A DNA stretch of 64,000 bases. It comes from a virus. The first letter of the stretch is position 1, and every line of letters starts with the position of its first letter. The DNA is taken from UHGV virus genome UHGV-1370141; one strand, written 5' to 3'. Positions 2,011-34,711 of this stretch are shown piece by piece. A program made the position numbers and the translations under genes. Below the pieces are notes generated by a model. The model did not search any database and was not told where the DNA came from. It worked only from the letters and a program-made list of their open reading frames with translations.

Positions 2011-2949
2011 ATGGAGTCACCTGCAATGGCGACCAATGCGGAACCAAAATTATCAGATCAGTTATTTGACAATCCAACAATATTAGCCGTTATTACTACA
2101 TCCAAATGTAATCTGGACTGTAGTTTCTGCGGCGGAGCCTATTACATGAATCGTGAAGATTCTTCTCGAGAGTTTCAACGTGACCGAATTATGGAGGCGT
2201 TAGAAGCTAACCCAACAATCACCGAGATTCAATGGACGGGTGGTGAGCCTTTGTTAGCCACTCGTAAAATTGAGGCGTTTGTTGACGAGTTAAAAGTAAT
2301 TCGTCCAGAGCTCAAACATCAGTTATATACCAACGGTTTAAAGATGCGTAAAACGCATCTCCCGTTGTTAAAACAATTTGATAATGTGTATGTTAGCATC
2401 GACGGGTTTGAGTTGTCTGAACGCCCTTTTAAGCGTTTTATTAACGATGGTTGCTACGAAGCTTTAGAAGTAATGCATGAGCTTGAAAATGTTCATACAT
2501 GGGCCGTTTTAACTCGAGAACAGTTGGGTAACAAACGGTGGCATGAAGACATTATTGAGCTTCATAATGCGATCTATCACTACGGTTATCGTACCATGAC
2601 GTTGCTGTTAGACGCGAATATGCCAAAACCGTTATCTCCCGATCACGTTATGAACTTTATTTACGGGTATTTTAGAATTCAGGAAAATATAGAAAGACTG
2701 AATGTTTCCAACTCGAAAAGGTGTGACTATGTCGTAAGCAAAGTTTTTGATGGTGGGTGTAACGTATGCAGCAATAGTTTATGGTTAAGAGCAGATGGAA
2801 CCGAATATCAGTTGCAAAATGCCCCGAGATTATTAGAATCGGGATGTAACCAATTAGCTTGTTCCATCGGGTTAGAAGCCTACGAGTATATTCGACGAGT
2901 GGTTATGGCCAACCGTAATAGTGGAGTATTAAATGAACCAAGAAAATAA
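2011..2949 (+). CDS. radical SAM enzyme (312 aa) with C-terminal auxiliary Cys cluster
   Basis: CxxxCxxC motif (TTSKCNLDCSFCGG) near N-terminus; C-terminal cysteines CDYVVSKVFDGGCNVCS...GCNQLAC. Confidence 0.8.
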   Translation: MESPAMATNAEPKLSDQLFDNPTILAVITTSKCNLDCSFCGGAYYMNREDSSREFQRDRIMEALEANPTITEIQWTGGEPLLATRKIEAFVDELKVIRPELKHQLYTNGLKMRKTHLPLLKQFDNVYVSIDGFELSERPFKRFINDGCYEALEVMHELENVHTWAVLTREQLGNKRWHEDIIELHNAIYHYGYRTMTLLLDANMPKPLSPDHVMNFIYGYFRIQENIERLNVSNSKRCDYVVSKVFDGGCNVCSNSLWLRADGTEYQLQNAPRLLESGCNQLACSIGLEAYEYIRRVVMANRNSGVLNEPRK

Positions 2950-4255
2950 TTACCCGAAACAGTTGACTTACCAGATTGTTACAAACTTGTCGTGTAATTT
3001 GGACTGTGAGTATTGTTACGAGCGTAAATATCCCCGCAATAACAAAGCAGCAGATATTGTAGATTTTCTTCATGCCTGTTTCGAGCGTGATAAAGATTTA
3101 CCAAACGTAGAAGTCGTCATTGACATTATCGGCGGCGAGCCGTTTATGCAGCCTAAGCTTCTAATGGCCGCTTTCGAAACAGCCGAGCAGTTGTGTGAAG
3201 AACATAAACGCCCGTTTATGTTTAGTATCTCTACTAATGGGACATTATTAGATAGGCCGTTGAACAGGGAAATTATTGAACGTTGGAAGGACAGACTTTC
3301 TATCGGGGTGTCTATTGATGGGTTACCTGAGTCGCACGATAAGTACCGTATTTTTACAACGAGTCGCGAAGGTTCTTACGAGGCCGCTGTACGTGGTTAC
3401 AATTATCTAAAAGAAGTAGGTATCGCGGAGCTTGGGGTTAAAGCGACATTTACTTTGGAAACGCTCCCACATTATGCGGCGGGTATGAAATCCCTAATCG
3501 ATTTGGCTGGAGGTGGAACCATTTCTGGTAACGTAACCTTCGAAGACATTATGCCACGGAGTATGGCTACGTCGATAGCGCTACAAATGATGGATGTAGT
3601 CGATTATTGGGTTGAAAAGGGTTTACACACCAACCCACGTAATACCCTATCACATATCATCCCGGAAGGGTTAGATTTCGACACTATCTGGGAACCGAAC
3701 TGGCGGGATCAGCTACTTTACAACGATACTGTACGTTTAAACCCGGAACGCTTGCGTCCGTTCTGCGGGACATTAACTCACATGACTTGTTTAGGGTTTG
3801 ACAGGAAGATTTTCGGTTGTAACCGTTTCATGTCGACTGTAACGTCACGTTCTGCGGTATTTGAGTTAGTCGGTCGTGAGTTTGTTAGCTTAGACGGTGG
3901 GAAACTGCTGGAAGAGATTCAGACGCAATACACCAACTATCCTGAGACGTGCTTAGGTTGTCCGATGAAACACGCTTGTGGTAGCTGTGCAGCAGCTTCC
4001 TACGAGAATGGGGAAGGGACGTTAGAAGACCGTAAAGCGTATCACGCTGAACGTCGTCAATGTGGTTGGACAACTGCAAAATTAATGGTCGCGGAATACT
4101 GGAAACAGAAGATGGGTACAACATCTGTGAAGGATTTCCACGATAATAGCATGTGTTACTGCCCTCGCTGTGTACGTGAACGTGCCCAAAAAGAAAAACA
4201 ATTGAGAGAAGCCAAAGATGAAGCCAATTCTGATCCACAATATTACGAAGCGTAA
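2933..4255 (+). CDS. radical SAM / SPASM-domain enzyme (440 aa), anSME-like maturase
   Basis: CNLDCEYC radical SAM motif; GGEP motif; C-terminal CLGCPMKHACGSC SPASM-type cluster; overlaps previous gene by 17 nt. Confidence 0.85.
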   Translation: MNQENNYPKQLTYQIVTNLSCNLDCEYCYERKYPRNNKAADIVDFLHACFERDKDLPNVEVVIDIIGGEPFMQPKLLMAAFETAEQLCEEHKRPFMFSISTNGTLLDRPLNREIIERWKDRLSIGVSIDGLPESHDKYRIFTTSREGSYEAAVRGYNYLKEVGIAELGVKATFTLETLPHYAAGMKSLIDLAGGGTISGNVTFEDIMPRSMATSIALQMMDVVDYWVEKGLHTNPRNTLSHIIPEGLDFDTIWEPNWRDQLLYNDTVRLNPERLRPFCGTLTHMTCLGFDRKIFGCNRFMSTVTSRSAVFELVGREFVSLDGGKLLEEIQTQYTNYPETCLGCPMKHACGSCAAASYENGEGTLEDRKAYHAERRQCGWTTAKLMVAEYWKQKMGTTSVKDFHDNSMCYCPRCVRERAQKEKQLREAKDEANSDPQYYEA

Positions 4256-15641: not shown

Positions 15642-16157
15642 TTACCCCCTGTGCAAGAAAATGCGGTTAGTGTTTTCGAATTTCGGTTCTGTCCACTCTA
15701 GTTCCCAGTAAGCCTGGTTAATATCGCGAGACGTGAGTTTCAAATTCGAAACACCGGGGATATCGATCTGTTGCAGTAAATTAATAATCGTCACCAGCTC
15801 TTTACGAGGACGGTTCCAGATAACTTCAAGATACTCTTTCAGACGTTCTGGGTAAGCAACGGGGCGAATATAGACTAGCCCAGAAGGATACTCAATTGCT
15901 GAGGGTGTTCTTGGCACTAACCAAACCCAGTCTTTTAATAGCGGTCCTGGGTGATAATTCGAGAGTTGGGTAAGCGCGTTCGCGACGGAACAACAGCGAA
16001 AATACATGATGTCCCAGTCTTTTTCGAAACAATTACGTGCGACCAGGACCTTTAGCTTATCGATAGGTTTACCGTCAATCGTAGTAACACCTGGCTGATT
16101 AGCCAAGATTTGACGTTCACGTTTGGTATAAAGATTCATGTTGATTGTTACAGACAT
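15642..16157 (-). CDS. hypothetical protein (171 aa)
   Basis: ORF. Confidence 0.5.
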   Translation of the reverse strand: MSVTINMNLYTKRERQILANQPGVTTIDGKPIDKLKVLVARNCFEKDWDIMYFRCCSVANALTQLSNYHPGPLLKDWVWLVPRTPSAIEYPSGLVYIRPVAYPERLKEYLEVIWNRPRKELVTIINLLQQIDIPGVSNLKLTSRDINQAYWELEWTEPKFENTNRIFLHRG

Positions 16158-19393: not shown

Positions 19394-20032
19394 TTAAACA
19401 CGTGAACCGTATATTGCACCTACTGCGTCCCATCTTGGCGCATTACCAGTAACAGCTTTACCAGCTGCTCCGCCGTTATATTCTGTACCGTTACCATGAG
19501 TATTACATCTTCCTCCAGCAGCACCGACATTACCACCCGAACCGCCTGTATATGCACTAAGAGACCCCTCACCAACAGATCCTCTACCAGGAGCGGAAAT
19601 AGTACCAGCAGCTGCACCGGAACTCATATGAGAGGAAGACCCACCAGCACCGCCTGGCGAGTTAGAACCACCGTTGCCTCCTCTGCCGTATACTGTAACC
19701 CCAGGATTGATGATGAGTGTAATATACGAATTTGGAAGATTGCTAGGGAATTCTAAACAAGGAACCCCGCTACTATAAGACACTAAATCCCCTGTAATGG
19801 TCACAACGACAGCAGTAGAGCCTAAAGAACGTAAATAGTTAATAAGAGTATCCTTATTATAGCTATGGTTAGCACCAATAGAATAATGGACCTCTTTTGA
19901 TTTTCCCGCCAATTGCGACATCCAGCCTGGAACCGGCACACCAAGTGTGCGCATCGCGCCAGACATCCATTCGTTACCAGCTTCAGCTTTTGCTGAAGAA
20001 CCAATCCAACCACCTACGCCGACAACTGCCAC
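19394..20032 (-). CDS. glycine-rich adhesin-like protein (212 aa)
   Basis: Gly-rich segments (GGNGGSNSPGGAGGSS...) separating other sequence, reminiscent of T2-type gp38 adhesins. Confidence 0.5.
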   Translation of the reverse strand: MAVVGVGGWIGSSAKAEAGNEWMSGAMRTLGVPVPGWMSQLAGKSKEVHYSIGANHSYNKDTLINYLRSLGSTAVVVTITGDLVSYSSGVPCLEFPSNLPNSYITLIINPGVTVYGRGGNGGSNSPGGAGGSSSHMSSGAAAGTISAPGRGSVGEGSLSAYTGGSGGNVGAAGGRCNTHGNGTEYNGGAAGKAVTGNAPRWDAVGAIYGSRV

Positions 20033-23000
20033 TAGGATCTCCCTTTGATTTCGTTAACCTCTTGACGCAACGCTTTCATACCCTCTACTAACAGCGCAAT
20101 AACGCCATTGTAGTTTAGACGTAAACGTTTTTCGCCTGAAATGGCATCATCATCCTCAGACACAAGTTCAGGTAACGCTTCTAATGCGTCTTGAGCAATT
20201 AGACCTACAGAAGTTTGCCAACCGTCATCCGGATGCTGAATTTCGTACAAATAACCAGTTAGTAACTCTAACCGATCCAAAGCCTTATCCAGCTTCACCA
20301 GATTACGTTTGTTACGACGGTCAGAACGAATCTGTACGTCGTTAAACGAACCGTTACCGCTGCCAGTAACGTTATGACCAAAGGTTACTTGGCCATTAGC
20401 GTTATTAAAATACAACGGACGTAGTCCGTTCCAGGAACCCGTTGCAGCTTGTCCGGCGTCGGTTACTAAGAAATAGGTATTGGCACCATCGTTACGTAAC
20501 ATAAAGCCGTAGTTGCCGTAAGCGATTCGAAAATCAGGGTACTTAGTGACCAATTTACCGTTAACGGTTAAATCGCCACCTATAGTACCGCCCCCTGACG
20601 GTAACGCACCGATGTCACCAGCGTTAGGTTTGTTGTGTGTGCTGTAAATCAGATAGACGGTACCGTCTGTTAGTCCTGCGGGTTTATTAGCCGTATAGCT
20701 TGGCGATGTGTGAATCGTTACGTTGGCATTACTAGTGTAGTCCCACTGAATATTAACACCGGTGGCGTAATTACCTATTTCAACATAAATATCGTAAGTG
20801 TCACCAGATGTATTCACCCATGCAAAATTAGTGAAGCCGACTGAGGTCAGTCGCCATAACGCACCAGTAATACCTTTTGGATTCCCATTTCCTGCACGCA
20901 GAACCAGCTCAGAGATACCTGCTTGATGCGGGGAACCAACGTTAAACCCTGCACCACCAATCAGGCTTATGTAAACCACGGAACTGGCTTGTGGCATCGT
21001 TACAGTTGCTAGTTTGAACCATCCGGCACCACCATTAAAAGACACAGTTGTTGTGTTCGCGGCACCAACATTTCGTAAGAATTTTCTCTTATCTGGAATA
21101 TCGGCACCGTTCTGTTTCTTCTGCAATGACCCACCGGCCAATTCTACAGTTTGGCCAAGATTTAAACTTTCAGCCGTTATTTCGATGTTTTTAGTGCCGT
21201 CAAACGCAATACCGTTGATGGTTCTTGCAGTTTGCAACTTTGTTGCAGTGGCCGCGTTTCCGGTGGTCGACTGATTACCCGTTTGGTTTACTCCAGGAAG
21301 ATTAACGTCTTTCGTCCCATCGAAAACCACACCACCGATCCTACGTCCTGTTTGTAACTTGGTAGCGGTTGCTGCATTACCTGTCGTATTCTGGTTGCCT
21401 TGCTGGTTAACCCCCGGTAAATTGATATCCCCAGTACCGTCAAAGGTAACGCCGCCGATTCTGCGAGCGGTTTTCAGTTTCGTCGCGGTAGCGGCGTTGC
21501 CGGTAGTATCTTGATTACCTGTGGTATTTACGCCAGGAATACTGTCACGGGCAGTATAAACTTGTGCCCAATCTGACCACGGCGCATCTGCCGTATCACG
21601 TCGACTACGAATATAAACTGGCGCGTGCGCACCACTCGTGCCCGACCAACCAATTAACAACTCGCCTTCGCCTAGCGCAGCAGAACCACCCAAATGCAGT
21701 AAGTTACCATAAGCGGTCGGATAACCGTTATTGTAAACTTCGTACATCTGAATACCAGGCGTACCTTTGTTTGAACCAGTCAGTGCAGTAACACGTCCAC
21801 GTCCTACCAACGTGTTGATATTGATGTCTCTAGACCCATCAAATTTCACACCGTTGATGTTTCGAGCCGTTTGTAATTTGGTTGCGGTTCCCGCGTTCCC
21901 AGAGGTGTTTTGATTACCTTGTTGGTTAACACCTGGGAGGTTAACGTCGCCGCTACCGTCGAAGGCGACCCCACCAATTCTACGTGCCGTCTTTAATTTA
22001 GTGGCGGTTGAAGCATTGCCTGTTAACTCACCTGCTAACCCTTTTGCAAAGGTCTGTTTTTCTGCCCAGGTGTGCGCTGCGTTCAATACAGGCATCTGGC
22101 GTGGCGTAATTGTTCGACTACCTTTCTCACCAGCGATACGAACAGCAAAGAAGCGATAGTTGGCAGTAGACACCGTACTACGCCAAACCAACATGCTCCG
22201 ACCGGTGCCGGTGTCATCAGACGGCCCTACAAGGATGTTAACTAAGTTACCGTCAATCACACCCCAATCCATTCCCGCAGGAATATTTTTCATGGTGTTC
22301 AACGGTGACGTTAACATCTGACCGGGAACGAAGTCGTAGGTTTGCCAGTCTAACGGGTCAACCTTAGCAGCTACACCACCAATGCCTAAAACTAACGGAA
22401 GTGAATACGAGGTGAAAACCTCTCGCCACCCACTCCAAATGTTACCCGTACGGATACGTTGGAATTTACGACCTTTAGTTTCTCTACCCGTGCCGTATGT
22501 GGTATAATTCTGTTCGACCCCTGTACCGTCTAAGCGTAAGGTAACTTCACAAACGCCTACCACGGTTTCGCTAGAAGAACCGATAAGTGGACCGTTAGTT
22601 GCCTCACCAGTGACACTGAAACGACCCGGTTTAACGAGATCGTTAAAATTGGCTTTAAAGAAAGCACCGTCAGTCTGATAACCAACCTGAATCCAATCTT
22701 CCCATTGTGGGTTTGATGAATCCCACGTTGCAGTCAAACCACGGACATACATTGTGCCACGACGCGTAGTGTATCGCTGCAACCGTCCGAAAAGACCACC
22801 TTCCATTACTTCTAGTACGCCTTGCGCGTTACCGCCTTCTTCAGGGTAATGCCGGTCGAACACCGCTAACGAACTGGACGAGTTCCGCCAGTTACCCATA
22901 TGCTCAGCGCCACCCAGAGAGTTCAAGTCTATAGAGGTAGACAGTGGGCGAACACCAGTGGTTACCATTCTCCACGGTGACCAGGGTCCATTAGTTCCGT

Positions 23001-24513
23001 TCCACACACCTGACAACATACGGTTGTACACGTTACCATTACGACAGGTAAAACGTTGCGCGCCACTGTAGTTGCCCGCTTTATACACTTCCAGATAACC
23101 GACTGCACCGTCTTCTGGGAAGTGTTTTGCCATCGACGCATTGGTTGATGTCGACTTAGACCACGTTCCTGTGTAATTAGCATCTGGAGCAAATGTGTTA
23201 ATATCAGCATCTACAGGCATTTCGCCACGGAAACGCAGGTAGGTATCAGGAGATAGGCCGATGTTGCGAGCAAAAGTTTCTTTATCTGGGATATCAGCGC
23301 CGTTAGAGTTTTTCTGTAACGCACCATTCGCTTTATCGACGGTAGTTTTCAAACCCAGGAAGTTAATGATATCCGCCGTCGACCCTTTCGCTAACAAATC
23401 GCGCGCAGTCGAGGTGAAATCCGCTAATCCCACCCGATTACTACCGGTAAAGTAAGGGAGTTTGTTTGCAGCGGTGGTGACTGCGGCAATCGCTGTCAGT
23501 AACGGACTTAACGGCTGTTTACCCGCGAGTTGGTTCGTTATCGTTGTCGCAAAGTTAGGATCGTTTCCTAACGCGGCTGCAATTTCTGATAACGTATCTA
23601 ACGTCTCGGGTGAAGAGTCCACTAATTCAGCAATCGCTTGCCGTACCCATGCCGTCGTTGAGACTGTCGTGTCGTTAGAATCCGCAGCAGGAGTCGGAGC
23701 TTTTACTACGCCAGTAAACGTCGGCGAGTGACGGTTTGCTTTTAACTGCAAATCATCATTTAACTGCTTAACCGTTGACGGTGTAGCCGCTTCCGTAACC
23801 GAGTCACTGGTTAAGGTATTATTAAGTTTAACGATACCTTTACTGGACGTTGTTGCATCAACGTTACCTTTTGCAGCGATTTCCTCTGCACGCTTAGCGG
23901 CTGCCTCAGAACGCGTTGCCGCATTCTCTGCGGTTTCTTTGTCTGAGGTAACTTGCGTTGCTGTAGCCTCTACAGAGGCTTTTGACGACTCTACTGACGC
24001 GACAGCTTCGTTAACTGCCGTAAGCGACTGTTCTACTTGACCGGCTTGTGTGGCAACAGTTTCTGCTTTCTTCGTAACGGTAGTCACCGCTTGTGTGACG
24101 TTGGCCTCGCTTGCCGCTACCGCTTGTGCTTTCTCATTAACGGACACAACCTGGGTATCTACCGCCGTTTTCGCGGCTAACACTTCAGTGTGTTTTGTAC
24201 CGACCTCAGTTGCTTTTTCGGTTACAGTTTGCGCTTGTTGAGCAACCGTAGCCGCAACGGTGTCAGTTTGTTGTTTTGCTGTTTCTGCTAAATTCTTTGC
24301 TTGTGTAGCCTGAGTTGCAGCTTCTTGTGATTGTGTTGCTGCTGCTTGTGCATCAGACACCGCATTACGCACGGTGTCAATATCTGCAACGATCTCACGG
24401 ACTGGTAACTTATAATCTTTCTCATCTTTGGAGAAAAGTAAAACACCTTCACCGATATCCCCGGTGTATGGACGTAAGTCGTGTAAACGAATTTTCTTTA
24501 CCGCTTTAGCCAT
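20032..24513 (-). CDS. long tail fibre protein (1493 aa) with C-terminal S74-type intramolecular chaperone domain
   Basis: N-terminal anchor domain; multiple repeats ...GNAATATKLQTARRIGGVxFDGTxDxNLPGVNQ...; C-terminus ...SDRRNKRNLVKLDKALDRLELLTGYLYEIQ... typical of self-cleaving chaperone. Confidence 0.85.
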   Translation of the reverse strand: MAKAVKKIRLHDLRPYTGDIGEGVLLFSKDEKDYKLPVREIVADIDTVRNAVSDAQAAATQSQEAATQATQAKNLAETAKQQTDTVAATVAQQAQTVTEKATEVGTKHTEVLAAKTAVDTQVVSVNEKAQAVAASEANVTQAVTTVTKKAETVATQAGQVEQSLTAVNEAVASVESSKASVEATATQVTSDKETAENAATRSEAAAKRAEEIAAKGNVDATTSSKGIVKLNNTLTSDSVTEAATPSTVKQLNDDLQLKANRHSPTFTGVVKAPTPAADSNDTTVSTTAWVRQAIAELVDSSPETLDTLSEIAAALGNDPNFATTITNQLAGKQPLSPLLTAIAAVTTAANKLPYFTGSNRVGLADFTSTARDLLAKGSTADIINFLGLKTTVDKANGALQKNSNGADIPDKETFARNIGLSPDTYLRFRGEMPVDADINTFAPDANYTGTWSKSTSTNASMAKHFPEDGAVGYLEVYKAGNYSGAQRFTCRNGNVYNRMLSGVWNGTNGPWSPWRMVTTGVRPLSTSIDLNSLGGAEHMGNWRNSSSSLAVFDRHYPEEGGNAQGVLEVMEGGLFGRLQRYTTRRGTMYVRGLTATWDSSNPQWEDWIQVGYQTDGAFFKANFNDLVKPGRFSVTGEATNGPLIGSSSETVVGVCEVTLRLDGTGVEQNYTTYGTGRETKGRKFQRIRTGNIWSGWREVFTSYSLPLVLGIGGVAAKVDPLDWQTYDFVPGQMLTSPLNTMKNIPAGMDWGVIDGNLVNILVGPSDDTGTGRSMLVWRSTVSTANYRFFAVRIAGEKGSRTITPRQMPVLNAAHTWAEKQTFAKGLAGELTGNASTATKLKTARRIGGVAFDGSGDVNLPGVNQQGNQNTSGNAGTATKLQTARNINGVKFDGSRDININTLVGRGRVTALTGSNKGTPGIQMYEVYNNGYPTAYGNLLHLGGSAALGEGELLIGWSGTSGAHAPVYIRSRRDTADAPWSDWAQVYTARDSIPGVNTTGNQDTTGNAATATKLKTARRIGGVTFDGTGDINLPGVNQQGNQNTTGNAATATKLQTGRRIGGVVFDGTKDVNLPGVNQTGNQSTTGNAATATKLQTARTINGIAFDGTKNIEITAESLNLGQTVELAGGSLQKKQNGADIPDKRKFLRNVGAANTTTVSFNGGAGWFKLATVTMPQASSVVYISLIGGAGFNVGSPHQAGISELVLRAGNGNPKGITGALWRLTSVGFTNFAWVNTSGDTYDIYVEIGNYATGVNIQWDYTSNANVTIHTSPSYTANKPAGLTDGTVYLIYSTHNKPNAGDIGALPSGGGTIGGDLTVNGKLVTKYPDFRIAYGNYGFMLRNDGANTYFLVTDAGQAATGSWNGLRPLYFNNANGQVTFGHNVTGSGNGSFNDVQIRSDRRNKRNLVKLDKALDRLELLTGYLYEIQHPDDGWQTSVGLIAQDALEALPELVSEDDDAISGEKRLRLNYNGVIALLVEGMKALRQEVNEIKGRS

Positions 24514-24547
24514 GATATTTAATTCTCTATCGGGAGCTAAAAGATCT

Positions 24548-24569
24548 GGGGGAGGTAAGCACCTCCCCC
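24548..24569. terminator. stem-loop between spike and fibre genes
   Basis: Perfect inverted repeat gggggaggt / acctccccc with aagc loop. Confidence 0.55.
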
Positions 24570-24590
24570 AACATTTTTATAAGCGGGTTA

Positions 24591-27500
24591 TTATTGCTCC
24601 GGTTTTAATGGAACATCTTCTACCGTTAACGTAACGTCTAAGGCCGCTTGACTGTGGTCAGTAATCGCTAAGTCACGATAAATATTAGCATTGGCTCCGT
24701 AGGTTTTATAAGTAACGTAGAGACCTAACGCACGTAGCACTTCCCCAGTGTAGAACCCATAAGCCATTCCGTTATCAGAAGACTCTCGAGCGGCTGGAGA
24801 CCACGCTCCATTAATCGGCTTATTCGGAATTGAGGTAATCGTAAACCCTTCACCTAACTCCTTAATTGCCGCATTAACCACTTTATCGTAGTTCGGATTC
24901 GTTGCACCGGCGAGTAATGCCCAGCAACACCCTGCTAACCACAACCCACACATATGTGCGGTGAAGTCGTTTTCCACCCAAACAGCTTTATCCGGTGCTG
25001 TAGGGAACTCGTTAGGAGTGTGGCCATTAAACCGATCCACAAACCCACCTAGCCAATTCACCCAGTTGTCAATATAGCTTGTTAACGCCTCGGGAACGTC
25101 TTTACCTCGCAGTTTCAGTTCGTACCAACAGCGACATGCGGCATGAAACGCACGAGGCTGATACCCTGCCCAAGGATGGTCATCACCCCAATGGAACGTC
25201 GTCCAGGTATCCGCTTCTCCGTAGCTGTAGTTGTCCCAACGGTTCCAGATATAAGCTGCACAACCAGGTCCTAATTCCCCAATTTGCTGTTGGTAAGCCA
25301 ACTGCGAATCGTACAGGAATTGAATCTGGTTATCTAACCACAGCTTATACCGGTCGTCTTTGTGGATACTGTACATAAACGGATACTGATAACCCGGATA
25401 AGGCATCCCGTGCCAAGCACCTAACTGTTCCGAACCTTCTAAGTAGCTGTTCGTGAACGGTATCGTACCCGGACAGTACGCTAACGAATCCAATCGGTAA
25501 TCTACAATCGTACAATCACCCACTTTTGCATCAAACTCTGCACCACCGCGTAAGGCAATACGGAAGGTTAAAATATAACCATCGTCTTTATTAAAGACCG
25601 GTGGAACATCGTTAACACAATAGTAAGCAAAGTGCGCATGGTCAACCGTAGAGTCAGGAAGAATCGTGACCTGATCCACCTTATCGAAATTCGGTGCTGA
25701 AGGTTTAGGGTCAGCGTCTGTGTGGTCTGGCTGATAACCGGAAAGTGTGGCTTCATCTGGATTCAACGTTACCTGACGCCATTCGTTGTTTGTGTTGGGT
25801 AACATCCACCACCAACGCCAGTTATCACTGTCGACTAAACGCAAGTTAAAATCTGCGTCTGCACGGTAAACAATAGAAACGGGTTTTACCTTCTCTTCAG
25901 CGGTTAACCAAAACCCGATAATAAACCCGGCACTGTCATCAGGAAATTCAGCTTCTACCACGGTACCCGCGCGACCATCGTAAATGCTATCCTCAAAACG
26001 TTCTTCCCATGTACAACCACCATAGTCCGAACACGCACGGGCTTCAGCTATCAGGTAGTCTCCCCCTTCTGGGGTGGTAATACGGGAAAGTTGGCCTAAG
26101 TCAATATCGTACTGTTTAACGGTATTTACCGTAGACCGAGGTAAGGTTAAACCGTACCAGTTTACTTCCTCGGTATCAGCTTTCGCAGGGTTAATGTTCA
26201 CCATCGCTTTACAGTAGACAGGATCGCCATTCTTACAAACTCCACCGTACGTGACACGAAGTTTGGAGTCTTTGTTAATCCTGAATCGAACCGCTTGCTG
26301 CTCCATAAAGTGTTGTACCGCTTCAGGCGCATGGATGGTAATGTCTCCATTCTCATCACGGCCGTAGGTAACACTTACGGTGTCCGGGTAATTGAAGTCG
26401 TACGAAATGCCATCCGTAAACGGTGTTTCCGCAGCGGTAGAACGACGGAAGAATTTATCTACCGCATCAATATACGTGTACTCGTGTGCTGTGTAGAAAG
26501 CACAGTCTAACGCTTGTTTGTATTTCTCTTCACCTGTTATACGCCACAGCAAATAACAGGCGTCGATAAACCACAGTTCAGCATCAGCGGCGTTACCGTA
26601 TTGGTTTTTCGACCCTAAGAACGGTGTGTGGACCGGACGGTTGTGCCACGGCTCATTACGTTTAAATTCGTAACCGCCGTGTTCGACGGGAAGTTTTACC
26701 GCGTAGTTAATTAAATAGACACCGTTTAACTGTGTGTCTTTTAACTGTACGGTACCTTTATCAGCGTCTGCTAATCCCGTCTCAATAATTTCACTATCCT
26801 GGATTTTGTTACCCGTCCAGGCAATTATCCAGTCAACGTCGTATTTAGGAGCTTTTGTTGCAGACCCGCCCCAAAGCGGGGTGTAACCTGTAGCATTATT
26901 TAGCAGTGTTGGCCAATCGACCCAAGCGATGCTTTCGTAAGGCTTATCAGGATTAGTAATAACGTGAGTTAAAACGTCTTCCCAATTAATCGACCCTTCT
27001 TTGTCTTCCTTGATAATCTGTACATCTGCGTTAATCGCGGCCCAGGCAGGGTGGCCACGATGTGCAAACGTACAGATATCCAAATACTCTCCCCAGAAAG
27101 GTGCACCGTGCGGTATCTTACATTGGCCATTTGTAAACCTTACAGGAACACATTTATACCCGCCGTTGGTAGGTTCCGTAGGGTGAATAGGATAGTGTGC
27201 TAATACCGGTTCTTTCCCGTTTACTAACCAGTTACAAATCCGACGCTGGGGTGTTGTCGGAATAGGCTGTCCGGCGTAGAAGTACGTGTTGTACGCATCC
27301 CAGGCGTGTTTCGCAGCATCTAACCATCTTTCGTCTTTTGTTGCGATATACATGTGGCAATAACCGATAATGTGTAACGACTGACCCTCGGTCGTTGCGT
27401 CACCATTCGGTTGGTATTCCGCCATGGTATCAGCGATGAAATGACGGTTATTCGACAGAACACCTTCTTCGTTTTGAATATAGTGTTCGTTGTGCGCGTC

Positions 27501-27596
27501 GTGAGTCGTTCCCGTATTCCGGGTAACGAAGGATTGGTGTCCGTAAGCTAACGATAACGCGTAGCTAATCGCGTGACGCTGAAAATGTTTTCTCAT
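24591..27596 (-). CDS. tail spike-like protein, possible polysaccharide-degrading receptor-binding protein (1001 aa)
   Basis: Very long ORF in fibre module; Trp/Tyr-rich C-terminal region; directly preceded in-frame by anchor-domain ORF. Confidence 0.55.
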   Translation of the reverse strand: MRKHFQRHAISYALSLAYGHQSFVTRNTGTTHDAHNEHYIQNEEGVLSNNRHFIADTMAEYQPNGDATTEGQSLHIIGYCHMYIATKDERWLDAAKHAWDAYNTYFYAGQPIPTTPQRRICNWLVNGKEPVLAHYPIHPTEPTNGGYKCVPVRFTNGQCKIPHGAPFWGEYLDICTFAHRGHPAWAAINADVQIIKEDKEGSINWEDVLTHVITNPDKPYESIAWVDWPTLLNNATGYTPLWGGSATKAPKYDVDWIIAWTGNKIQDSEIIETGLADADKGTVQLKDTQLNGVYLINYAVKLPVEHGGYEFKRNEPWHNRPVHTPFLGSKNQYGNAADAELWFIDACYLLWRITGEEKYKQALDCAFYTAHEYTYIDAVDKFFRRSTAAETPFTDGISYDFNYPDTVSVTYGRDENGDITIHAPEAVQHFMEQQAVRFRINKDSKLRVTYGGVCKNGDPVYCKAMVNINPAKADTEEVNWYGLTLPRSTVNTVKQYDIDLGQLSRITTPEGGDYLIAEARACSDYGGCTWEERFEDSIYDGRAGTVVEAEFPDDSAGFIIGFWLTAEEKVKPVSIVYRADADFNLRLVDSDNWRWWWMLPNTNNEWRQVTLNPDEATLSGYQPDHTDADPKPSAPNFDKVDQVTILPDSTVDHAHFAYYCVNDVPPVFNKDDGYILTFRIALRGGAEFDAKVGDCTIVDYRLDSLAYCPGTIPFTNSYLEGSEQLGAWHGMPYPGYQYPFMYSIHKDDRYKLWLDNQIQFLYDSQLAYQQQIGELGPGCAAYIWNRWDNYSYGEADTWTTFHWGDDHPWAGYQPRAFHAACRCWYELKLRGKDVPEALTSYIDNWVNWLGGFVDRFNGHTPNEFPTAPDKAVWVENDFTAHMCGLWLAGCCWALLAGATNPNYDKVVNAAIKELGEGFTITSIPNKPINGAWSPAARESSDNGMAYGFYTGEVLRALGLYVTYKTYGANANIYRDLAITDHSQAALDVTLTVEDVPLKPEQ

Positions 27597-28713: not shown

Positions 28714-29088
28714 TTATTCGGTTAATTCTCCACACAACACAACGTCGATACCAAACATCATTCCCACTTCTTGAAGTTTGTTCGCCAGTAAGTGACGATG
28801 ACAAAACTTACCTGCGGGACAATAACACATCAAAACCAAATCATCGTGTCTGAGTAATGACACTAAAACTTCGGCGTTGGTATCTAACAGTCGTTCGAGC
28901 TTATATAAATACTTTATCGTGTACTCACGTTCAGCGACAGTGTCCTTGGCAGAGTTTTTATACGCCATTAAGAAATCCCAGTCTGGGGCGAGTTCCTTTC
29001 TCCCCGATTTGACTGTAATATCCACTGCGTGAAATCCTTTCTGCTTAGCTAACCGCCACTTAGCGAGTTGTAACGTCCAGATACGCAT
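28714..29088 (-). CDS. hypothetical protein (124 aa), possibly DUF488-like
   Basis: ORF; CYCPAGKFCHRH motif. Confidence 0.4.
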   Translation of the reverse strand: MRIWTLQLAKWRLAKQKGFHAVDITVKSGRKELAPDWDFLMAYKNSAKDTVAEREYTIKYLYKLERLLDTNAEVLVSLLRHDDLVLMCYCPAGKFCHRHLLANKLQEVGMMFGIDVVLCGELTE

Positions 29089-29285: not shown

Positions 29286-29494
29286 TGCCCACCTCCCATT
29301 CGTTTAGCGTATTCCGTACATGCCATTACTAATTCAGCATAACGTGGGTTATCGACAGTGGTACCTGACATACATTCACGATAAAGGGACTCTTTACGCG
29401 ATTCGTCAGACGTCTTAACGTAGAACATCAGCATCGTTACAATCAGCGCAGTTGAAACAATTGCTGAGATGATATATCCGTCATTTATTTTCAT
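29282..29494 (-). CDS. small membrane protein (70 aa)
   Basis: N-terminal transmembrane segment; paralog of 29088..29285. Confidence 0.4.
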   Translation of the reverse strand: MKINDGYIISAIVSTALIVTMLMFYVKTSDESRKESLYRECMSGTTVDNPRYAELVMACTEYAKRMGGGQ

Positions 29495-30011
29495 CTATAA
29501 AGCACCAAGGTTCTGGATAAAACTCTGTAAGTAAATCAACGTAAAAGCAGTTTAGGTGGGTTAATTTTATAACACAACCCAACAGATCGTGTTCCCTCCA
29601 ATGGTAGATTACCACGGACGTTTCTGATAATCGCTTAACGTTCGTATATCCCGCATCTTTAATCGTACGATAAAATTGACCGAAATCGATTTGACCAGTA
29701 ACGTCCTTGTCGTCTGCGGTGAGATAACGTATTCGTGGAGCCTCGTTATTTACTAACGAAAGAAATTTCTCCACACTTTCAGCATGGATTCGTTCCATAA
29801 GGGATAAATGTGGGAACACTTCTTTACGTAATGCACCACTTGAAATCTTAGCAAAAACCTGACGTTCCGTTAAGCGCATTAACTCGCCTAATCTTTTCAA
29901 GTCTTTGTTATATCCCAAAAAAAGAGCCACTTTCTCGTCATGCGTAATAGGCGGCCATTCGACCGCCTTTGCCCGACGTTGCTTAAACCAACTCGCAAGT
30001 CGCGCTATCAC
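29481..30011 (-). CDS. hypothetical protein (176 aa)
   Basis: ORF. Confidence 0.5.
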   Translation of the reverse strand: MIARLASWFKQRRAKAVEWPPITHDEKVALFLGYNKDLKRLGELMRLTERQVFAKISSGALRKEVFPHLSLMERIHAESVEKFLSLVNNEAPRIRYLTADDKDVTGQIDFGQFYRTIKDAGYTNVKRLSETSVVIYHWREHDLLGCVIKLTHLNCFYVDLLTEFYPEPWCFIDENK

Positions 30012-30013
30012 GT

Positions 30014-30706
30014 TTAGTAATCCTCTTCCTGATTGACTACCGATTGGATACGGGTTGCGACTTCGCTGGTGTCCAGGTCAGTTTCGTCTACCTTATCCAC
30101 GAGTTTCTGTACTTTACGTACATGAGATTCGGTAATATCAAAACGACCACGATCGGCTAACAACAACGTTACCATATCCTTACGCGTAACCATCAGTTCT
30201 TCTTCAGGTAAGTGTAAGGATTTGTCTAACAGACCCGAATGCATGAAGTTTTCCAGTAAGCGTTCTTCTCCCTGGTCGAAATCATAACGTTCGTTAGGTG
30301 CAGCAACGAAAGCGTAACCGAAGTAGTTTTCTTCCGTCTCACGTAGCGACTTGATGATTTTATCACCATGCTGACAGAAATCACTTAACGTGTAGTCGTC
30401 AAGCGTTGCAACGATGGTTTCTGCTTGTACACCATTATCTGTTTCGTACAGATGTGCAACCCAAAGTTTCCAGTTACGCGGTTCGTCAAACAAACCACCG
30501 ATTAACATGTCGGTGGCTGCCATGCGCATACGCGGTGACGTTGTAAACTGGAAACCACGACCTGCATACGGACCGATAGGACGAATAGAGCTACCGACGA
30601 AAGTAATGCGGTTTAGCGCATTTTCAGCAATGGTGTGTGCAGTACGGTTAGCAGCCGCTTTCGGGTTATACTTTTTGTTACGAGGTTTCTTTTGTTTGGT
30701 AGCCAT
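30014..30706 (-). CDS. hypothetical protein (230 aa)
   Basis: ORF. Confidence 0.55.
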   Translation of the reverse strand: MATKQKKPRNKKYNPKAAANRTAHTIAENALNRITFVGSSIRPIGPYAGRGFQFTTSPRMRMAATDMLIGGLFDEPRNWKLWVAHLYETDNGVQAETIVATLDDYTLSDFCQHGDKIIKSLRETEENYFGYAFVAAPNERYDFDQGEERLLENFMHSGLLDKSLHLPEEELMVTRKDMVTLLLADRGRFDITESHVRKVQKLVDKVDETDLDTSEVATRIQSVVNQEEDY

Positions 30707-31188
30707 TATTTATTCTCAACTAATACTGTGTGAAATGCTTTATAAAGAGCTTGACGTGTCTCAATTAACACAGGGCGATTAATCAAGCACATATATCCGA
30801 TTTTCCAAGACCAGTAAGACGTGTCGTCGGTATTTAACCCGTAATCGGGTTCAAGATATACCAAATCCGTGTATGAATCTGGTATATAAAGACGACACAA
30901 ACTAAGATTCCAAAAATTAGGTAAATCCGATTTTGCAAGTTCGGACATAACCTGCATTGGAAGCCAGCTTCCAATGGCATCTGTTGCAAAAACAATGTGC
31001 AGATTTCCAGGCGACTTAGAATACATACCGTGACCTTCACAGCTCCACATTGTCGCCAAGTGCGGATGGTCGTTGATTAGTTTACAAGTATCACGAACAC
31101 CTTTCTCAATGTAACCGTTTTTGATTGCAGACTGAGCACGCTCTTTAAACGACGCCAATCTTTCTGCGTCAACAGAAAATTGAATCAT
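30706..31188 (-). CDS. hypothetical protein (160 aa)
   Basis: ORF. Confidence 0.5.
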   Translation of the reverse strand: MIQFSVDAERLASFKERAQSAIKNGYIEKGVRDTCKLINDHPHLATMWSCEGHGMYSKSPGNLHIVFATDAIGSWLPMQVMSELAKSDLPNFWNLSLCRLYIPDSYTDLVYLEPDYGLNTDDTSYWSWKIGYMCLINRPVLIETRQALYKAFHTVLVENK

Positions 31189-31691
31189 GACGGATTCTTC
31201 CCTAAAATTATCTCGCGCATTTCCAGGTAGGTGTCAAACGGCACCACGGTGTCTTTGTAACGCAACGTTACGTAGGTTACGAAATGCTGGGGTGCCAGGA
31301 AAGCACGTTTTGGCGACCCGTCGTGGTTGTAATACTGTTTCGGACGATAGTTGTTGAAAATGTCTTCACGCGGGAACAACGATTTCTGAATAACCACTTC
31401 CCAGCGATGCGGCGTTTCCAAAAGCGCGATACGGTTCAGTATGTCATCTACCCAACGTTCCTTATTTTCAGTTAACACGAAACTCACGTGATGGTGTTGG
31501 ACTTCTGCTAATGCGATTTCGGGTTCTTTATCCAGTTTCAACAATACCGCAAACAGAGGACGATAATCAGAATCGTACAGGTCACGGAAAGCGGTTTTCT
31601 CACGCTGTTTAAACAACTCAACAATTTCTTTAGATTCGAAGCAATTCATTTTGAAATCCCCAATTCGTAAGTAACCAAATCGAACAAACAC
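31185..31691 (-). CDS. hypothetical protein (168 aa)
   Basis: ORF. Confidence 0.5.
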   Translation of the reverse strand: MFVRFGYLRIGDFKMNCFESKEIVELFKQREKTAFRDLYDSDYRPLFAVLLKLDKEPEIALAEVQHHHVSFVLTENKERWVDDILNRIALLETPHRWEVVIQKSLFPREDIFNNYRPKQYYNHDGSPKRAFLAPQHFVTYVTLRYKDTVVPFDTYLEMREIILGKNPS

Positions 31692-32041
31692 ATTTCCAGC
31701 ATCGCTTGATACAACGTGTGTTCCCCATTACCCACAAAACCGTTGGTCAACATTTTATACGTATCTGCCCCAAACATCGTCTTTATGTCTATAGGACGTT
31801 TTTCGATAATACGTAATAGCGATATTTCCATTACAATCCAATAAGCAGGCTCAACCCTAATTCTAAATAACGGATTGATTTTACTTATTGTTTTATCCCA
31901 AATCCTAAACCAGCGAACCCATTCTGTGCTATTCTGGGGTTTACGCAATCTAAGACGCGTATACGGTGAGTTGTTATATTGGTCAATAAATGTCTCAATG
32001 ACATCAGCTTTTCTTGACATTATACCTAATATTGCGGTCAT
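31646..32041 (-). CDS. hypothetical protein (131 aa)
   Basis: ORF. Confidence 0.45.
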   Translation of the reverse strand: MTAILGIMSRKADVIETFIDQYNNSPYTRLRLRKPQNSTEWVRWFRIWDKTISKINPLFRIRVEPAYWIVMEISLLRIIEKRPIDIKTMFGADTYKMLTNGFVGNGEHTLYQAMLEMCLFDLVTYELGISK

Positions 32042-32087
32042 CTCTATATTCTCCTAATCATTAAAATAGCCGCAGTTGTAAAAAAGA

Positions 32088-32609
32088 CTACGGGTTAAAA
32101 GGTAGCGGTTTGCAATCCCGCTTTTTCAACTCTTCTACTAACTCAGGTAATGTACACCAACGTTTAAATTTGTTGTTGGCTTTAAAGTGACTAAGAATTT
32201 CCTCTACGCGTTCAATAGACCACTTCCCTTTACCCACGTTATCTAAATCTTTACGTACCGAGAGCGTCTCAATGGTAAACGCTAATTCTGAAGTGTCCGA
32301 GTGGTCGTACAGCAGTCTTACTGGTGTAGATTGGTGTAGCGTAACACGCCACCCTGACTCTTTAGCCCAGTAGACGTCTTTAATTCGACCACTGACATCA
32401 ATTACGGAACTGATATAGCACCACTCCTTTTCTAGTTTGTTCTCTTCAGCAGTTAATGCTTCTTCTAATCTTAAAGAATTAGGGGACGGAATCCACCAAC
32501 CGTACTTACCGTAATAATCGTCTATTACAGTAATACCTTCGTAATACAGATATTGAGTTTTTGTATTAACGAATATTTCATCGCCAATTAAGACAGCGTT
32601 TATCTTCAT
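32088..32609 (-). CDS. hypothetical protein (173 aa)
   Basis: ORF. Confidence 0.5.
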   Translation of the reverse strand: MKINAVLIGDEIFVNTKTQYLYYEGITVIDDYYGKYGWWIPSPNSLRLEEALTAEENKLEKEWCYISSVIDVSGRIKDVYWAKESGWRVTLHQSTPVRLLYDHSDTSELAFTIETLSVRKDLDNVGKGKWSIERVEEILSHFKANNKFKRWCTLPELVEELKKRDCKPLPFNP

Positions 32610-33094
32610 CGTAAGTGCTTCCTGTAAAATAAGTCATACGCCTCCGATGTGGCGGTATCAATAGATCCTACTAAGGGAATAATATTCTTTTCGCTTATAC
32701 CTGATGCCCAGGCCGCACGAGCAAAACCTTGACCCGAACCCGTTGCCCAAACCGTGTTTTTATTCAGTACACGGGATTCAAATTTACCCTCTAGCAGCCC
32801 GAGCCAGTGTGTTTCCTCAGCTGTGTAAATGATAATCTGATCGTAAAACTGTTCTTTTTCAATAAGATCTTTAAATAACCCTTCGATCTTGGCTCGCTTT
32901 TCTTCAATCAAATATTTTTCTGCTGCGACCATTATCGTCTTTTTCCAGAGATCCGAGTCCAATACGCGTTCCCCAGTATAAACAACGAATTTGTTTTTGT
33001 ACTTGTGTAATTTAGGTGCCGCTTTAACTGTACCGCCGTAGTCAACCAACCGATCGGCTAAAATGTAATCGTTTGTTACTAAAACTGTTGTCAT
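32606..33094 (-). CDS. HslV/proteasome beta-like Ntn-hydrolase candidate (162 aa from MTT start)
   Basis: Starts MTTVLVTNDY (HslV begins MTTIVSV); later ATGSGQGFARAAWASG resembles HslV GSGGPYAQAAARAL; longer ORF start at 33208 rejected because it runs through a terminator hairpin. Confidence 0.4.
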   Translation of the reverse strand: MTTVLVTNDYILADRLVDYGGTVKAAPKLHKYKNKFVVYTGERVLDSDLWKKTIMVAAEKYLIEEKRAKIEGLFKDLIEKEQFYDQIIIYTAEETHWLGLLEGKFESRVLNKNTVWATGSGQGFARAAWASGISEKNIIPLVGSIDTATSEAYDLFYRKHLR

Positions 33095-33121
33095 CACACA
33101 CCTCGAAGAAAAATAAAAGTA

Positions 33122-33145
33122 CCCTCTCTCCAAACGGAGAGAGGG
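33122..33145 (-). terminator. stem-loop terminator (identical copy at 33909..33932)
   Basis: ccctctctcc aaac ggagagaggg perfect inverted repeat. Confidence 0.6.
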
Positions 33146-33152
33146 GCACTGC

Positions 33153-33422
33153 TTAAATCTTACGACTGCTACCGTAGCAGCCACGACCTGCTGTCGTTTT
33201 CGCAGCACTGACAGGTGCTAACGCAGCCATCGTACCATCGGCCTTAACAATGTGTAAATTACCTGCGCGAACCAGACCTTTAAAGGTAATCTTCACACCT
33301 TTGCGTAAACTCTTCACTTCATACCCGTCGAGTTTGAGTGTTTTAACTTTTTCAGGTTTACCTTCTTCGTAATAGGAAAGAACATTACCCGCACGTTTCT
33401 CAACAATGTAAATCTTAGCCAT
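33153..33422 (-). CDS. hypothetical protein (89 aa)
   Basis: ORF ending just before hairpin. Confidence 0.4.
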   Translation of the reverse strand: MAKIYIVEKRAGNVLSYYEEGKPEKVKTLKLDGYEVKSLRKGVKITFKGLVRAGNLHIVKADGTMAALAPVSAAKTTAGRGCYGSSRKI

Positions 33423-33523
33423 TTTAGATTACTCCATTTAGTTAAGTGAGAATTCTCACATAGATGAAATATATCTTAAATTTTTTAGACCGTTAACAAC
33501 ACAATGCTGAAGCCATATCGAAA

Positions 33524-33856
33524 TTAGTGTGGCTCGGGTTCGACATAAATTTCCCCAAACACGTATGCGGTTCCGGCTTCATTTGTCGGTTTAGCAACAC
33601 ACCACATCCATTCTTTAGTTTCTTGGTTTTGCCAGGACAACAAAAGAACACCGTCACAAATTTCAGAAGTATCCACTTCTGGATGATACAACATAAATTC
33701 GTTGTCATTATCATCCATTACAACAAACTGCCCTTCTTCGATTCTTTCGAATTTCGCGACGCCTACCGCAATCGCGGGCTCCTCAACAGTAAACGACACG
33801 TCACGTTTTGGCAAATCACGGTGAATAGCACTTAACCACATCAGATTGTTCCTCAA
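33524..33856 (-). CDS. hypothetical protein (110 aa)
   Basis: ORF. Confidence 0.45.
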   Translation of the reverse strand: MRNNLMWLSAIHRDLPKRDVSFTVEEPAIAVGVAKFERIEEGQFVVMDDNDNEFMLYHPEVDTSEICDGVLLLSWQNQETKEWMWCVAKPTNEAGTAYVFGEIYVEPEPH

Positions 33857-33908
33857 TTAATTTTGTTTACTTGTGCATAACTACGGCTATACGCGTAAAA
33901 TAAATACA

Positions 33909-33932
33909 CCCTCTCTCCAAACGGAGAGAGGG
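33909..33932 (-). terminator. stem-loop terminator (second copy)
   Basis: 28 nt identical to 33121..33148. Confidence 0.6.
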
Positions 33933-33937
33933 GCAGC

Positions 33938-34444
33938 TTACAGCAGATTCTCTTCGCGATCATCTACCAAGATAGACGTAATAACATAACGCGCTAAGCG
34001 ACTACGCGCTTCTTCAGTTTCTTCGTCGGACGGTAATTGCTCACCTGCTGGCGCACACAGCGTCAGTCCTGATTCACGAAGCTGTTCCGTGTATTCTTCT
34101 ACGGCAGTTTCAAACGTACCACGAATACCTGCGACAGTGTCCATAATCTCATCAGTTGGGATAATGGATTCTTTCAACACAGCATGGGCATCAGTAGGTT
34201 CGACGGAGTCTAAGTTCAGTTCGACCAGCAACGCTTTCTTCGCCAGACAGTCAGTGATAAAACACGACAGAACTTTTTCAAACTCATCTAAACTGAATTC
34301 GGTGTCGTCAGAGGCACCGGTGATGAGCTGACCGTAACGGTTAAACAGCTCTTTACAACGTGTTTCATAATCAGCATCGATATCACGAACACCGAGGTCG
34401 AAATCGTGTTGTTCGAGCTGATTAAAATCCAGAGTCTCACTCAT
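33938..34444 (-). CDS. acidic hypothetical protein (168 aa)
   Basis: ORF. Confidence 0.5.
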   Translation of the reverse strand: MSETLDFNQLEQHDFDLGVRDIDADYETRCKELFNRYGQLITGASDDTEFSLDEFEKVLSCFITDCLAKKALLVELNLDSVEPTDAHAVLKESIIPTDEIMDTVAGIRGTFETAVEEYTEQLRESGLTLCAPAGEQLPSDEETEEARSRLARYVITSILVDDREENLL

Positions 34445-34483
34445 TATTAAAGTCTCCAGTTAAGAGGTCATATTACCTGCTGA

Positions 34484-34711
34484 CTAGAGGGCCAGCGTTA
34501 ACCCCGTGTGGGTTTGTACTGAACCAACACCGTCACGCGCTTTCGCTTTTGCGATAAGTTTGTCAATCACACGTTGGTGACTGCGCGTAATAACTTTACC
34601 CGGATAACCGATAATGAGCGCATTTTCGCTGTTGATTACCGCCGAGAATTCGTTATCACCTGCGACGTAAACAATCTGTTTGTTTTTGGTTACAATACGT
34701 TTAATTTCCAT
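34484..34711 (-). CDS. hypothetical protein (75 aa)
   Basis: ORF. Confidence 0.4.
   Translation of the reverse strand: MEIKRIVTKNKQIVYVAGDNEFSAVINSENALIIGYPGKVITRSHQRVIDKLIAKAKARDGVGSVQTHTGLTLAL

Follow-up and report, generated by a model that had tools for sequence, protein, structure and literature searches.

What kind of protein is encoded on the minus strand at positions 32606-33094 of the virus genome UHGV-1370141, and with what partner, if any, might it work? The stretch of DNA analysed here, which comprises 64,000 nucleotides (nt) and is referred to below as the window, carries at this locus a gene that an initial annotation had proposed as possibly encoding an HslV/proteasome-like N-terminal nucleophile (Ntn) hydrolase of a phage, with a threonine exposed after removal of the methionine. 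HslV (also called ClpQ) is the peptidase of the ATP-dependent protease HslUV; it forms a dodecamer of two stacked hexameric rings, and its peptidase activity is stimulated by HslU and ATP. The proposal is supported by profile matches to HslV, by superposition of a predicted structure and by the conservation of catalytic residues. With a probability of roughly 75%, the protein is a compact representative, much diverged in sequence, of the HslV branch of the proteasome-beta superfamily (Ntn hydrolases, MEROPS T1-type), encoded by a phiKZ/SPN3US-like jumbo phage and acting by the mechanism outlined below. In this phage lineage it is an orphan.

The gene and its kinship to HslV

The gene and its ribosome-binding site are defined as follows:

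32606-33094, minus strand: coding sequence of the HslV-like peptidase, 162 amino acids (aa), beginning with MTT, from the ATG at 33094-33092 to the TGA at 32608-32606
33099-33104, minus strand: Shine-Dalgarno sequence GAGGTG, 4 nt upstream of the ATG at 33094, as read from the sequence

The open reading frame (ORF) of about 162 aa with the start MTTVLV exists as initially annotated, the only missing detail being its strand, which is minus. Its translation reads MTTVLVTNDYILADR...ATGSGQGFARAAWASG...YRKHLR, in which the segment ATGSGQGFARAAWASG corresponds to residues 117-132. The longest mechanical ORF reaches farther upstream, to a GTG at 33208, and thereby crosses the 3' end of the upstream gene and a hairpin at 33122-33145 that resembles an intrinsic terminator. 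Nearly all of the full-length close homologues have 162 aa, and every aligned member of the family, close or distant, starts with MTT, except for one with MTM; since the lengths and the starts of the homologues agree, the ATG at 33094 is the right start. Homologues found in a large protein collection at E<=1e-3 number 56, and the ratio of nonsynonymous to synonymous substitution rates (dN/dS) is 0.30 in comparison with the Enterobacter record and 0.11 in comparison with the Salmonella contig described below, i.e. the gene is under purifying selection. The ORF is therefore a genuine, conserved gene, as opposed to a chance reading frame.

The kinship of the encoded protein to HslV is visible only through family profiles and structure, because curated models miss it, and a single-sequence phmmer search of the PDB returned only noise. 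Among the PHROG families, phrog_1040 ("peptidase HslV family") matches residues 1-157 with E 7.9e-6. When 1.84 billion representative proteins were searched with a profile, only 18 clusters emerged at E<=1e-3, so the family is small, as HMMER sees it. We assembled a diverse alignment of 21 sequences, comprising the window protein, 5 close homologues and 15 distant members drawn from these clusters, which are 21-31% identical to the window protein. The profile of these 21 members finds in the PDB the HslV of T. brucei (4HNZ) with E 1.5e-7, followed by about 20 HslVs and proteasome beta subunits with E values of 0.02-1.4; the beta-proteobacterial proteasome homologue (BPH) and Anbu were not reached at E<=10, whereas HslV was. 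In a profile-profile comparison, hhalign matches the family to bacterial HslV (a profile of four sequences, from Salmonella, a second enterobacterium, S. aureus and Sinorhizobium) with a probability of 88.8% and E 2.5e-6, and pairs MTT with MTT, D14 with D17, K28 with K33 and GSG with GSGG. The segment GSG..A.AA, whose likeness to HslV had been noticed initially, is paired by hhalign with GSGGxYAxAA of the bacterial enzymes. Profiles built from the family thus do match an Ntn-hydrolase fold significantly.

Catalytic residues and predicted fold

The residues to which a catalytic role is assigned, numbered from Met1, are listed below:

T2: nucleophile after removal of Met1, equivalent of Thr1
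D14 and K28: equivalents of Asp17 and Lys33, according to the pairing by HMMER and hhalign
G119-S120-G121: Gly-Ser-Gly loop, aligned to GSGG of HslV
D146 and T149: putative equivalents of Asp166 and Ser169, according to their spacing

No variation is seen in the 21-sequence alignment at M1, T2, D14, K28, G119, G121 and D146, and positions 120 and 149 are occupied by Ser or Thr throughout. The M1-T2 pair is invariant in 25 close as well as in 21 diverse homologues, and T3 is nearly so. Together, these residues fit the pattern Thr1/Asp17/Lys33/Gly-Ser-Gly/Asp166-x-x-Ser169 of the proteasome beta subunits. The serine of the Gly-Ser-Gly loop is Ser129 in the proteasome and Ser124/125 in HslV, and loss of Met1 is expected from the preference of methionine aminopeptidase for a small residue at position 2. 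The catalytic triad of the proteasome and its oxyanion Gly47 have been described (PMC8665760).

Because the catalytic residues are conserved at 21-31% identity and dN/dS amounts to 0.11-0.30, the protein is likely to be an active N-terminal-threonine peptidase and no remnant. A catalytically dead remnant, a structural protein or a decoy that keeps the fold alone would agree with the loss of the usual ATPase partner and with the fact that this gene is the most diverged of its neighbourhood between strains, but the retention of every catalytic position across so divergent a family, the low dN/dS and a dS of 1.88, which points to an old recombined allele and against decay, make it very unlikely.

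The predicted structure agrees with assignment to the HslV branch. AlphaFold2 supplied with the 25 close homologues gave a poor model (predicted local distance difference test score, pLDDT, of 54), which was discarded, and with the diverse alignment it gave a confident one (pLDDT 93.2; predicted template modelling score, pTM, 0.88). The latter exhibits the alpha-beta-beta-alpha sandwich fold of the proteasome, with both helix pairs of H1-H4 present, H1 comprising residues 48-61 and H2 residues 64-80. In a Foldseek comparison with the PDB the four best matches are HslVs, followed by BPH and then by further HslVs and proteasome beta subunits; HslV accounts for 8 of the top 20 matches, the others being BPH or proteasome beta, with a probability of 1.00. 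The superposition on HslV, which had been suggested as a check of the initial annotation, therefore came out in its favour.

HslV is the best match of the phage protein both by sequence profile and by structure, and the two share a Met-Thr-Thr start without a propeptide (compare E. coli 1NED/1G4A, T. maritima 1M4Y and T. brucei 4HNZ), counterparts of Asp17, of Lys33 and of the GSG(G) loop, and a compact build, with helices H1-H4 in about 160-175 aa and the C-terminus not extended. They differ in that the identity is only 13-20% and the phage protein falls below the curated HslV/Proteasome thresholds, in that it lacks about 14 residues of the length of HslV and has a reduced N-terminal hairpin, and in that the helices of the HslU pocket are not recognisably conserved and the phage genome has no hslU. 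BPH and Anbu, which may work without a partner, are bacterial, whereas the protein studied here is encoded by a phage. A survey of proteasome homologues by Fuchs et al. (2021) described PPH, AAH and CPH in phages (PMC8665760). The protein is set apart from PPH, the proteasome homologue of phages and hosts, by the description of the latter as having about 140 residues and lacking helix H2 (PMC8665760), as opposed to 162 aa with predicted H1 and H2.

Its activity, oligomeric state, partner and substrates we infer as follows. Methionine aminopeptidase would take off Met1, as expected for the family, and the new N-terminal threonine would cleave peptide bonds with its free amino group as the base and its hydroxyl as the nucleophile, with help from Asp14 and Lys28 as a pair and from the Gly-Ser-Gly loop. 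The active sites would probably be enclosed in stacked rings, by analogy with HslV and BPH, and the substrates would be unfolded polypeptides degraded in the infected cell, with no part in capsid processing. In related phages the peptidase is likely fed by a phage HslU-like AAA+ unfoldase, whose gene lies 1.8-2.5 kb downstream; in the lineage of the window, which has no such gene, it must act either unassisted on peptides and unfolded proteins, or with an unfoldase of the host, e.g. HslU. An enzyme of the same fold that is no general protease, but a sequence-specific processing enzyme, a connectase-like transpeptidase or ligase, or an amidase acting on non-protein substrates, we consider decidedly unlikely. 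Diverged proteasome homologues may gain new quaternary structures and activities (Fuchs et al., PMC8665760), and the genome lacks an unfoldase partner; on the other side, connectase lacks the first helix pair (PMC8665760), while the model has both, and in the relatives an HslU-like neighbour has been retained, as would fit proteolysis.

Several observations weigh against the assignment to HslV as an active peptidase. The plain Pfam search that had been recommended initially finds nothing: there is no match of the protein to PF00227 at E<=10, none of the 21 family members matches PF00227 significantly (one of the 21 reaches E 0.13), and the NCBIfam HslV models have no significant match to the protein or to the 21 family members. 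The hhalign probability is below 95%, against an HslV profile that is shallow (four sequences), and the TM-scores to solved HslVs are moderate (0.60-0.65) for a structure that is itself a prediction. The helices at 48-80, which match those of the pocket for the HslU tail, are the least conserved part of the protein. Literature searches found no experimental work on phage HslV-like proteins. Finally, HslV on its own cleaves proteins poorly (PMC6429459), and an orphan of the HslV type may therefore show little activity or a different one.

Phage relatives and the missing HslU-like partner

The initial annotation regarded a peptidase of this kind as unusual for a phage, which turned out not to be the case. 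Apart from the survey mentioned above (PMC8665760), full-length orthologues with 24-31% identity were found by tblastn in the Erwinia phages Phobos, EarlPhillipIV, Derbicus, pEa_SNUABM_6 and pEa_SNUABM_38 and in Cronobacter phage CR5, and matches to the C-terminal part in Machina-like phages and in Salmonella phage pSal-SNUABM-04. The orthologues of Phobos (gp123), CR5, EarlPhillipIV and Derbicus already bear the RefSeq label "peptidase HslV family". Like these Derbicusvirus and Machina-like proteins (PHROG 1040 / 23394), the window protein has the MTT start and the catalytic residues, and like its Phobos relatives it occupies a syntenic place between homologues of gp121 and gp125. In the BFVD, 43 viral proteins match the predicted model at E<=1e-3, many of them from jumbo phages, i.e. 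dozens of phage proteins have this fold. The protein is a very diverged member of an already annotated, uncharacterised kind, and fairly ordinary save for the missing HslU-like gene.

This missing partner is the one unexpected feature of the locus and its sole point of specialist interest. Judged from the positions of matches in the annotated phage collection, the HslV-like gene is followed by an HslU-like one, 1.8-2.5 kb downstream and in the same orientation, in all 13 distinct phages in which the former occurs. In Phobos it encodes gp130, an HslU-like AAA+ protein of 682 aa located 2.3 kb downstream of the HslV-like gp123, with N- and C-terminal parts that are 39-42% identical to bacterial HslU. 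A search of the window with gp130 gave no match. Synteny with Phobos is kept for the homologues of gp121, gp123, gp125, gp132 and gp133; relatives of the Phobos type carry a gp126-gp131 block that includes the HslU-like gene, and the lineage of the window is without the whole block.

The absence extends to the whole genome, as judged from NZ_CP134650.1, a near-identical complete record of 222 kb. Its six-frame tblastn search at E<=0.1 revealed no relative of gp130 or of gp119, the second AAA+ protein of Phobos, and phmmer --max on all of its ORFs likewise found no relative of either (best E 0.35). A search of the genome for an AAA+ unfoldase by a strict Walker-A scan (GxxGxGK[ST]) and phmmer --max yielded one unrelated Walker-A protein only. 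The Salmonella contig with a 69%-identical allele has the same gene order and no AAA+ Pfam match within +-10 kb. A comparable absence has been reported for pSal-SNUABM-04, said to have HslV genes and to encode no HslU subunit (PMC7823757). We find, however, that positions 106156-107874 of its genome (MT710307.1), annotated as "putative DnaA protein | hypothetical protein", match the HslU-like protein of Phobos by tblastn (52% identity, E 6e-47), and the DnaA label is probably a mis-annotation of an HslU-like gene; this phage is counted among the 13. For Erwinia phage RAY, localisation to the phage nucleus has been reported for gp116, a protein of the HslU family (bioRxiv 10.1101/2023.02.24.529968; PMC10299810).

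Could the peptidase then rely on the unfoldase of its host? It might dock on the HslU hexamer of Salmonella or Enterobacter, either giving an ATP-dependent hybrid protease whose specificity is changed, or titrating HslU away from the host HslV. The whole genome is without an HslU-like gene and yet the peptidase is under purifying selection; the hosts encode HslU (e.g. the hslVU locus of Salmonella); and a lineage-specific invariant G-T-V-K at positions 21-24 resembles T-V-M-K28 of HslV, in which K28 is a putative contact of the HslU tail; this is at most a hint. The pocket that receives the C-terminal tail of HslU has been mapped on HslV of E. coli and H. influenzae to F54, F57, A79/K80 and Q114 (PMC6429459). 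These residues are not recognisably conserved in the phage protein, in which residues 48-80 align poorly with HslV by hhalign and allow no reliable residue-by-residue equivalence. The pocket-equivalent helices change fastest in the whole protein, and this variability does not favour canonical docking of HslU. On balance, we consider recruitment of host HslU rather unlikely. It is also improbable, though worth stating, that the phage lost its own HslU-like protein, kept the intact peptidase and now plugs it into host HslU or another AAA+ protein as a hybrid phage-host protease; if this were true, such a protease would redirect host proteolysis during infection or during episome-like carriage in Salmonella and Enterobacter isolates.

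The locus, the phage lineage and their meaning

The elements that adjoin the gene are as follows:

33110-33145, minus strand: terminator-like hairpin CCCTCTCTCCGTTTGGAGAGAGGG (33122-33145) with a T-rich tail, directly upstream of the HslV-like gene
32606-32609, minus strand: ATGA overlap between the stop of the HslV-like gene and the start of the downstream gene
32088-32609, minus strand: downstream gene for a 173-aa protein, PHROG 25529, function unknown

The hairpin at 33122-33145 closes the preceding gene of 89 aa, and transcription of the HslV-like gene must therefore involve either read-through or a promoter within the upstream gene. A second exact copy of this GC-rich 24-nt hairpin CCCTCTCTCCGTTTGGAGAGAGGG is found at 33909-33932 on the minus strand, where none is expected by chance. 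Both copies have a T-rich tail and lie just past the end of a gene, and they look like a reused terminator cassette that brackets the small genes 33153-33422 and 33524-33856. The ATGA overlap, which is arranged in the same way in the Salmonella contigs L012 and L013, suggests translational coupling with the 173-aa gene. The latter was considered as a conserved partner and rejected: it belongs to PHROG 25529 and Phobos gp124 to PHROG 8172, and direct BLASTP between them gives only E 0.02-0.09.

Farther downstream, a 131-aa ORF at 31646-32041 (minus strand) is missing from the Enterobacter record (L002) and from the Salmonella contig L013, and in contig L012 a 131-aa gene is called in the same place. 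The ORF is a small gene of variable presence just downstream of the HslV-like operon. Both of the adjoining minus-strand genes 30706-31188 and 31185-31691 have a match to PHROG 7413 (E 3.5e-26 and 3.8e-5), and they look like a tandem duplication; the product of 30706-31188 also has a weak, sub-threshold Pfam match to the TYW3 methyltransferase (E 7e-4).

The position of the gene bears on a role in processing of the capsid or scaffold, which the initial annotation had considered. The gene is surrounded by small non-structural genes, which include a Dam methylase, GNAT acetyltransferases and an XRE regulator, and in the relatives it is linked to the AAA+ HslU-like gene, away from the head genes. 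Although phiKZ-like jumbo phages process many head proteins, and genes of the phiKZ_IP-like inner body lie about 9 kb away, the near-identical complete genome NZ_CP134650.1 has a dedicated S80-family morphogenetic serine protease encoded in its head module. Because a separate prohead protease is present, a role in prohead or scaffold maturation, or in processing inside the virion, appears extremely unlikely. Prohead proteases of the S80/S78/U9 type are, moreover, herpesvirus-protease-like enzymes with Ser/His catalysis encoded in the head module, as opposed to the proteasome-like fold of the protein described here.

Between strains that are otherwise nearly identical, the HslV-like gene is the most diverged of its neighbourhood, with 90% and 69% aa identity, compared with mostly more than 93% for its neighbours. 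The differences from the Enterobacter copy are confined to residues 8-103, the C-terminal third being identical, and the comparison with the Salmonella contig L013 (69% aa identity) gives dS 1.88 and dN/dS 0.11. Since dS is high and dN/dS low, the sequences suggest an old allele exchanged by recombination, as opposed to decay or positive selection. Genes 29481-30011 and 30706-31188 show a divergence like that of the HslV-like gene, which indicates mosaic exchange of alleles within the lineage.

The window belongs to a jumbo phage of the phiKZ/SPN3US kind. Among its products are a homologue of the phiKZ non-virion RNA polymerase subunit gp123 (PDB 7OGP), a major capsid protein of the phiKZ gp120 type, and tail, tail-fibre and virion structural proteins. 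The phage collection contains no close relative: the structural genes show 75-82% DNA identity to Erwinia jumbo phages and SPN3US, over at most half of a 13.5-kb query, and megablast of region 31500-34500 found no match. A 12-kb stretch is 96.6% identical to NZ_CP134650.1, deposited as a circular "plasmid" of 222,441 bp of Enterobacter ludwigii, and the HslV-like protein is also encoded on contigs of about 224 kb in assemblies of several Salmonella enterica isolates (among them L013). The deposition of the phage as an Enterobacter "plasmid" and its presence in Salmonella isolate assemblies suggest that cultured isolates carry it stably, in a carrier state or by pseudolysogeny.

Two further regions of the window may be mentioned. 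The block 19394-27596 (minus strand) lies between the homologues of Phobos gp132 (28714-29088) and gp133 (15642-16157), which are adjacent in Phobos. It encodes a 1001-aa tail protein, a 1493-aa fibre with segments like those of T-even long tail fibres, and a gp38-like adhesin; the fibre of the Salmonella contigs has matches to Gp34_trimer and Peptidase_S74. The fibre region differs between related contigs and looks like a swappable host-range module. At 2011-4255 on the plus strand there are two adjacent radical-SAM proteins, both annotated as "radical SAM protein" in the Enterobacter record, of which the one of 440 aa matches PHROG 1802 (E 3.5e-115).

Proteasome-type peptidases of phages have been catalogued, but none has been characterised, and the gene described here adds to them a well-supported and very diverged member. 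The practical effect is modest: a "hypothetical protein" in Salmonella and Enterobacter records becomes an "HslV-like N-terminal-threonine peptidase". The lineage also offers a natural orphan case, in which the peptidase has been kept and the unfoldase lost, beside relatives that have both genes, and this contrast between orphan and paired forms provides a handle on the question of whether phage HslV-like proteins need a dedicated unfoldase or can use that of the host.
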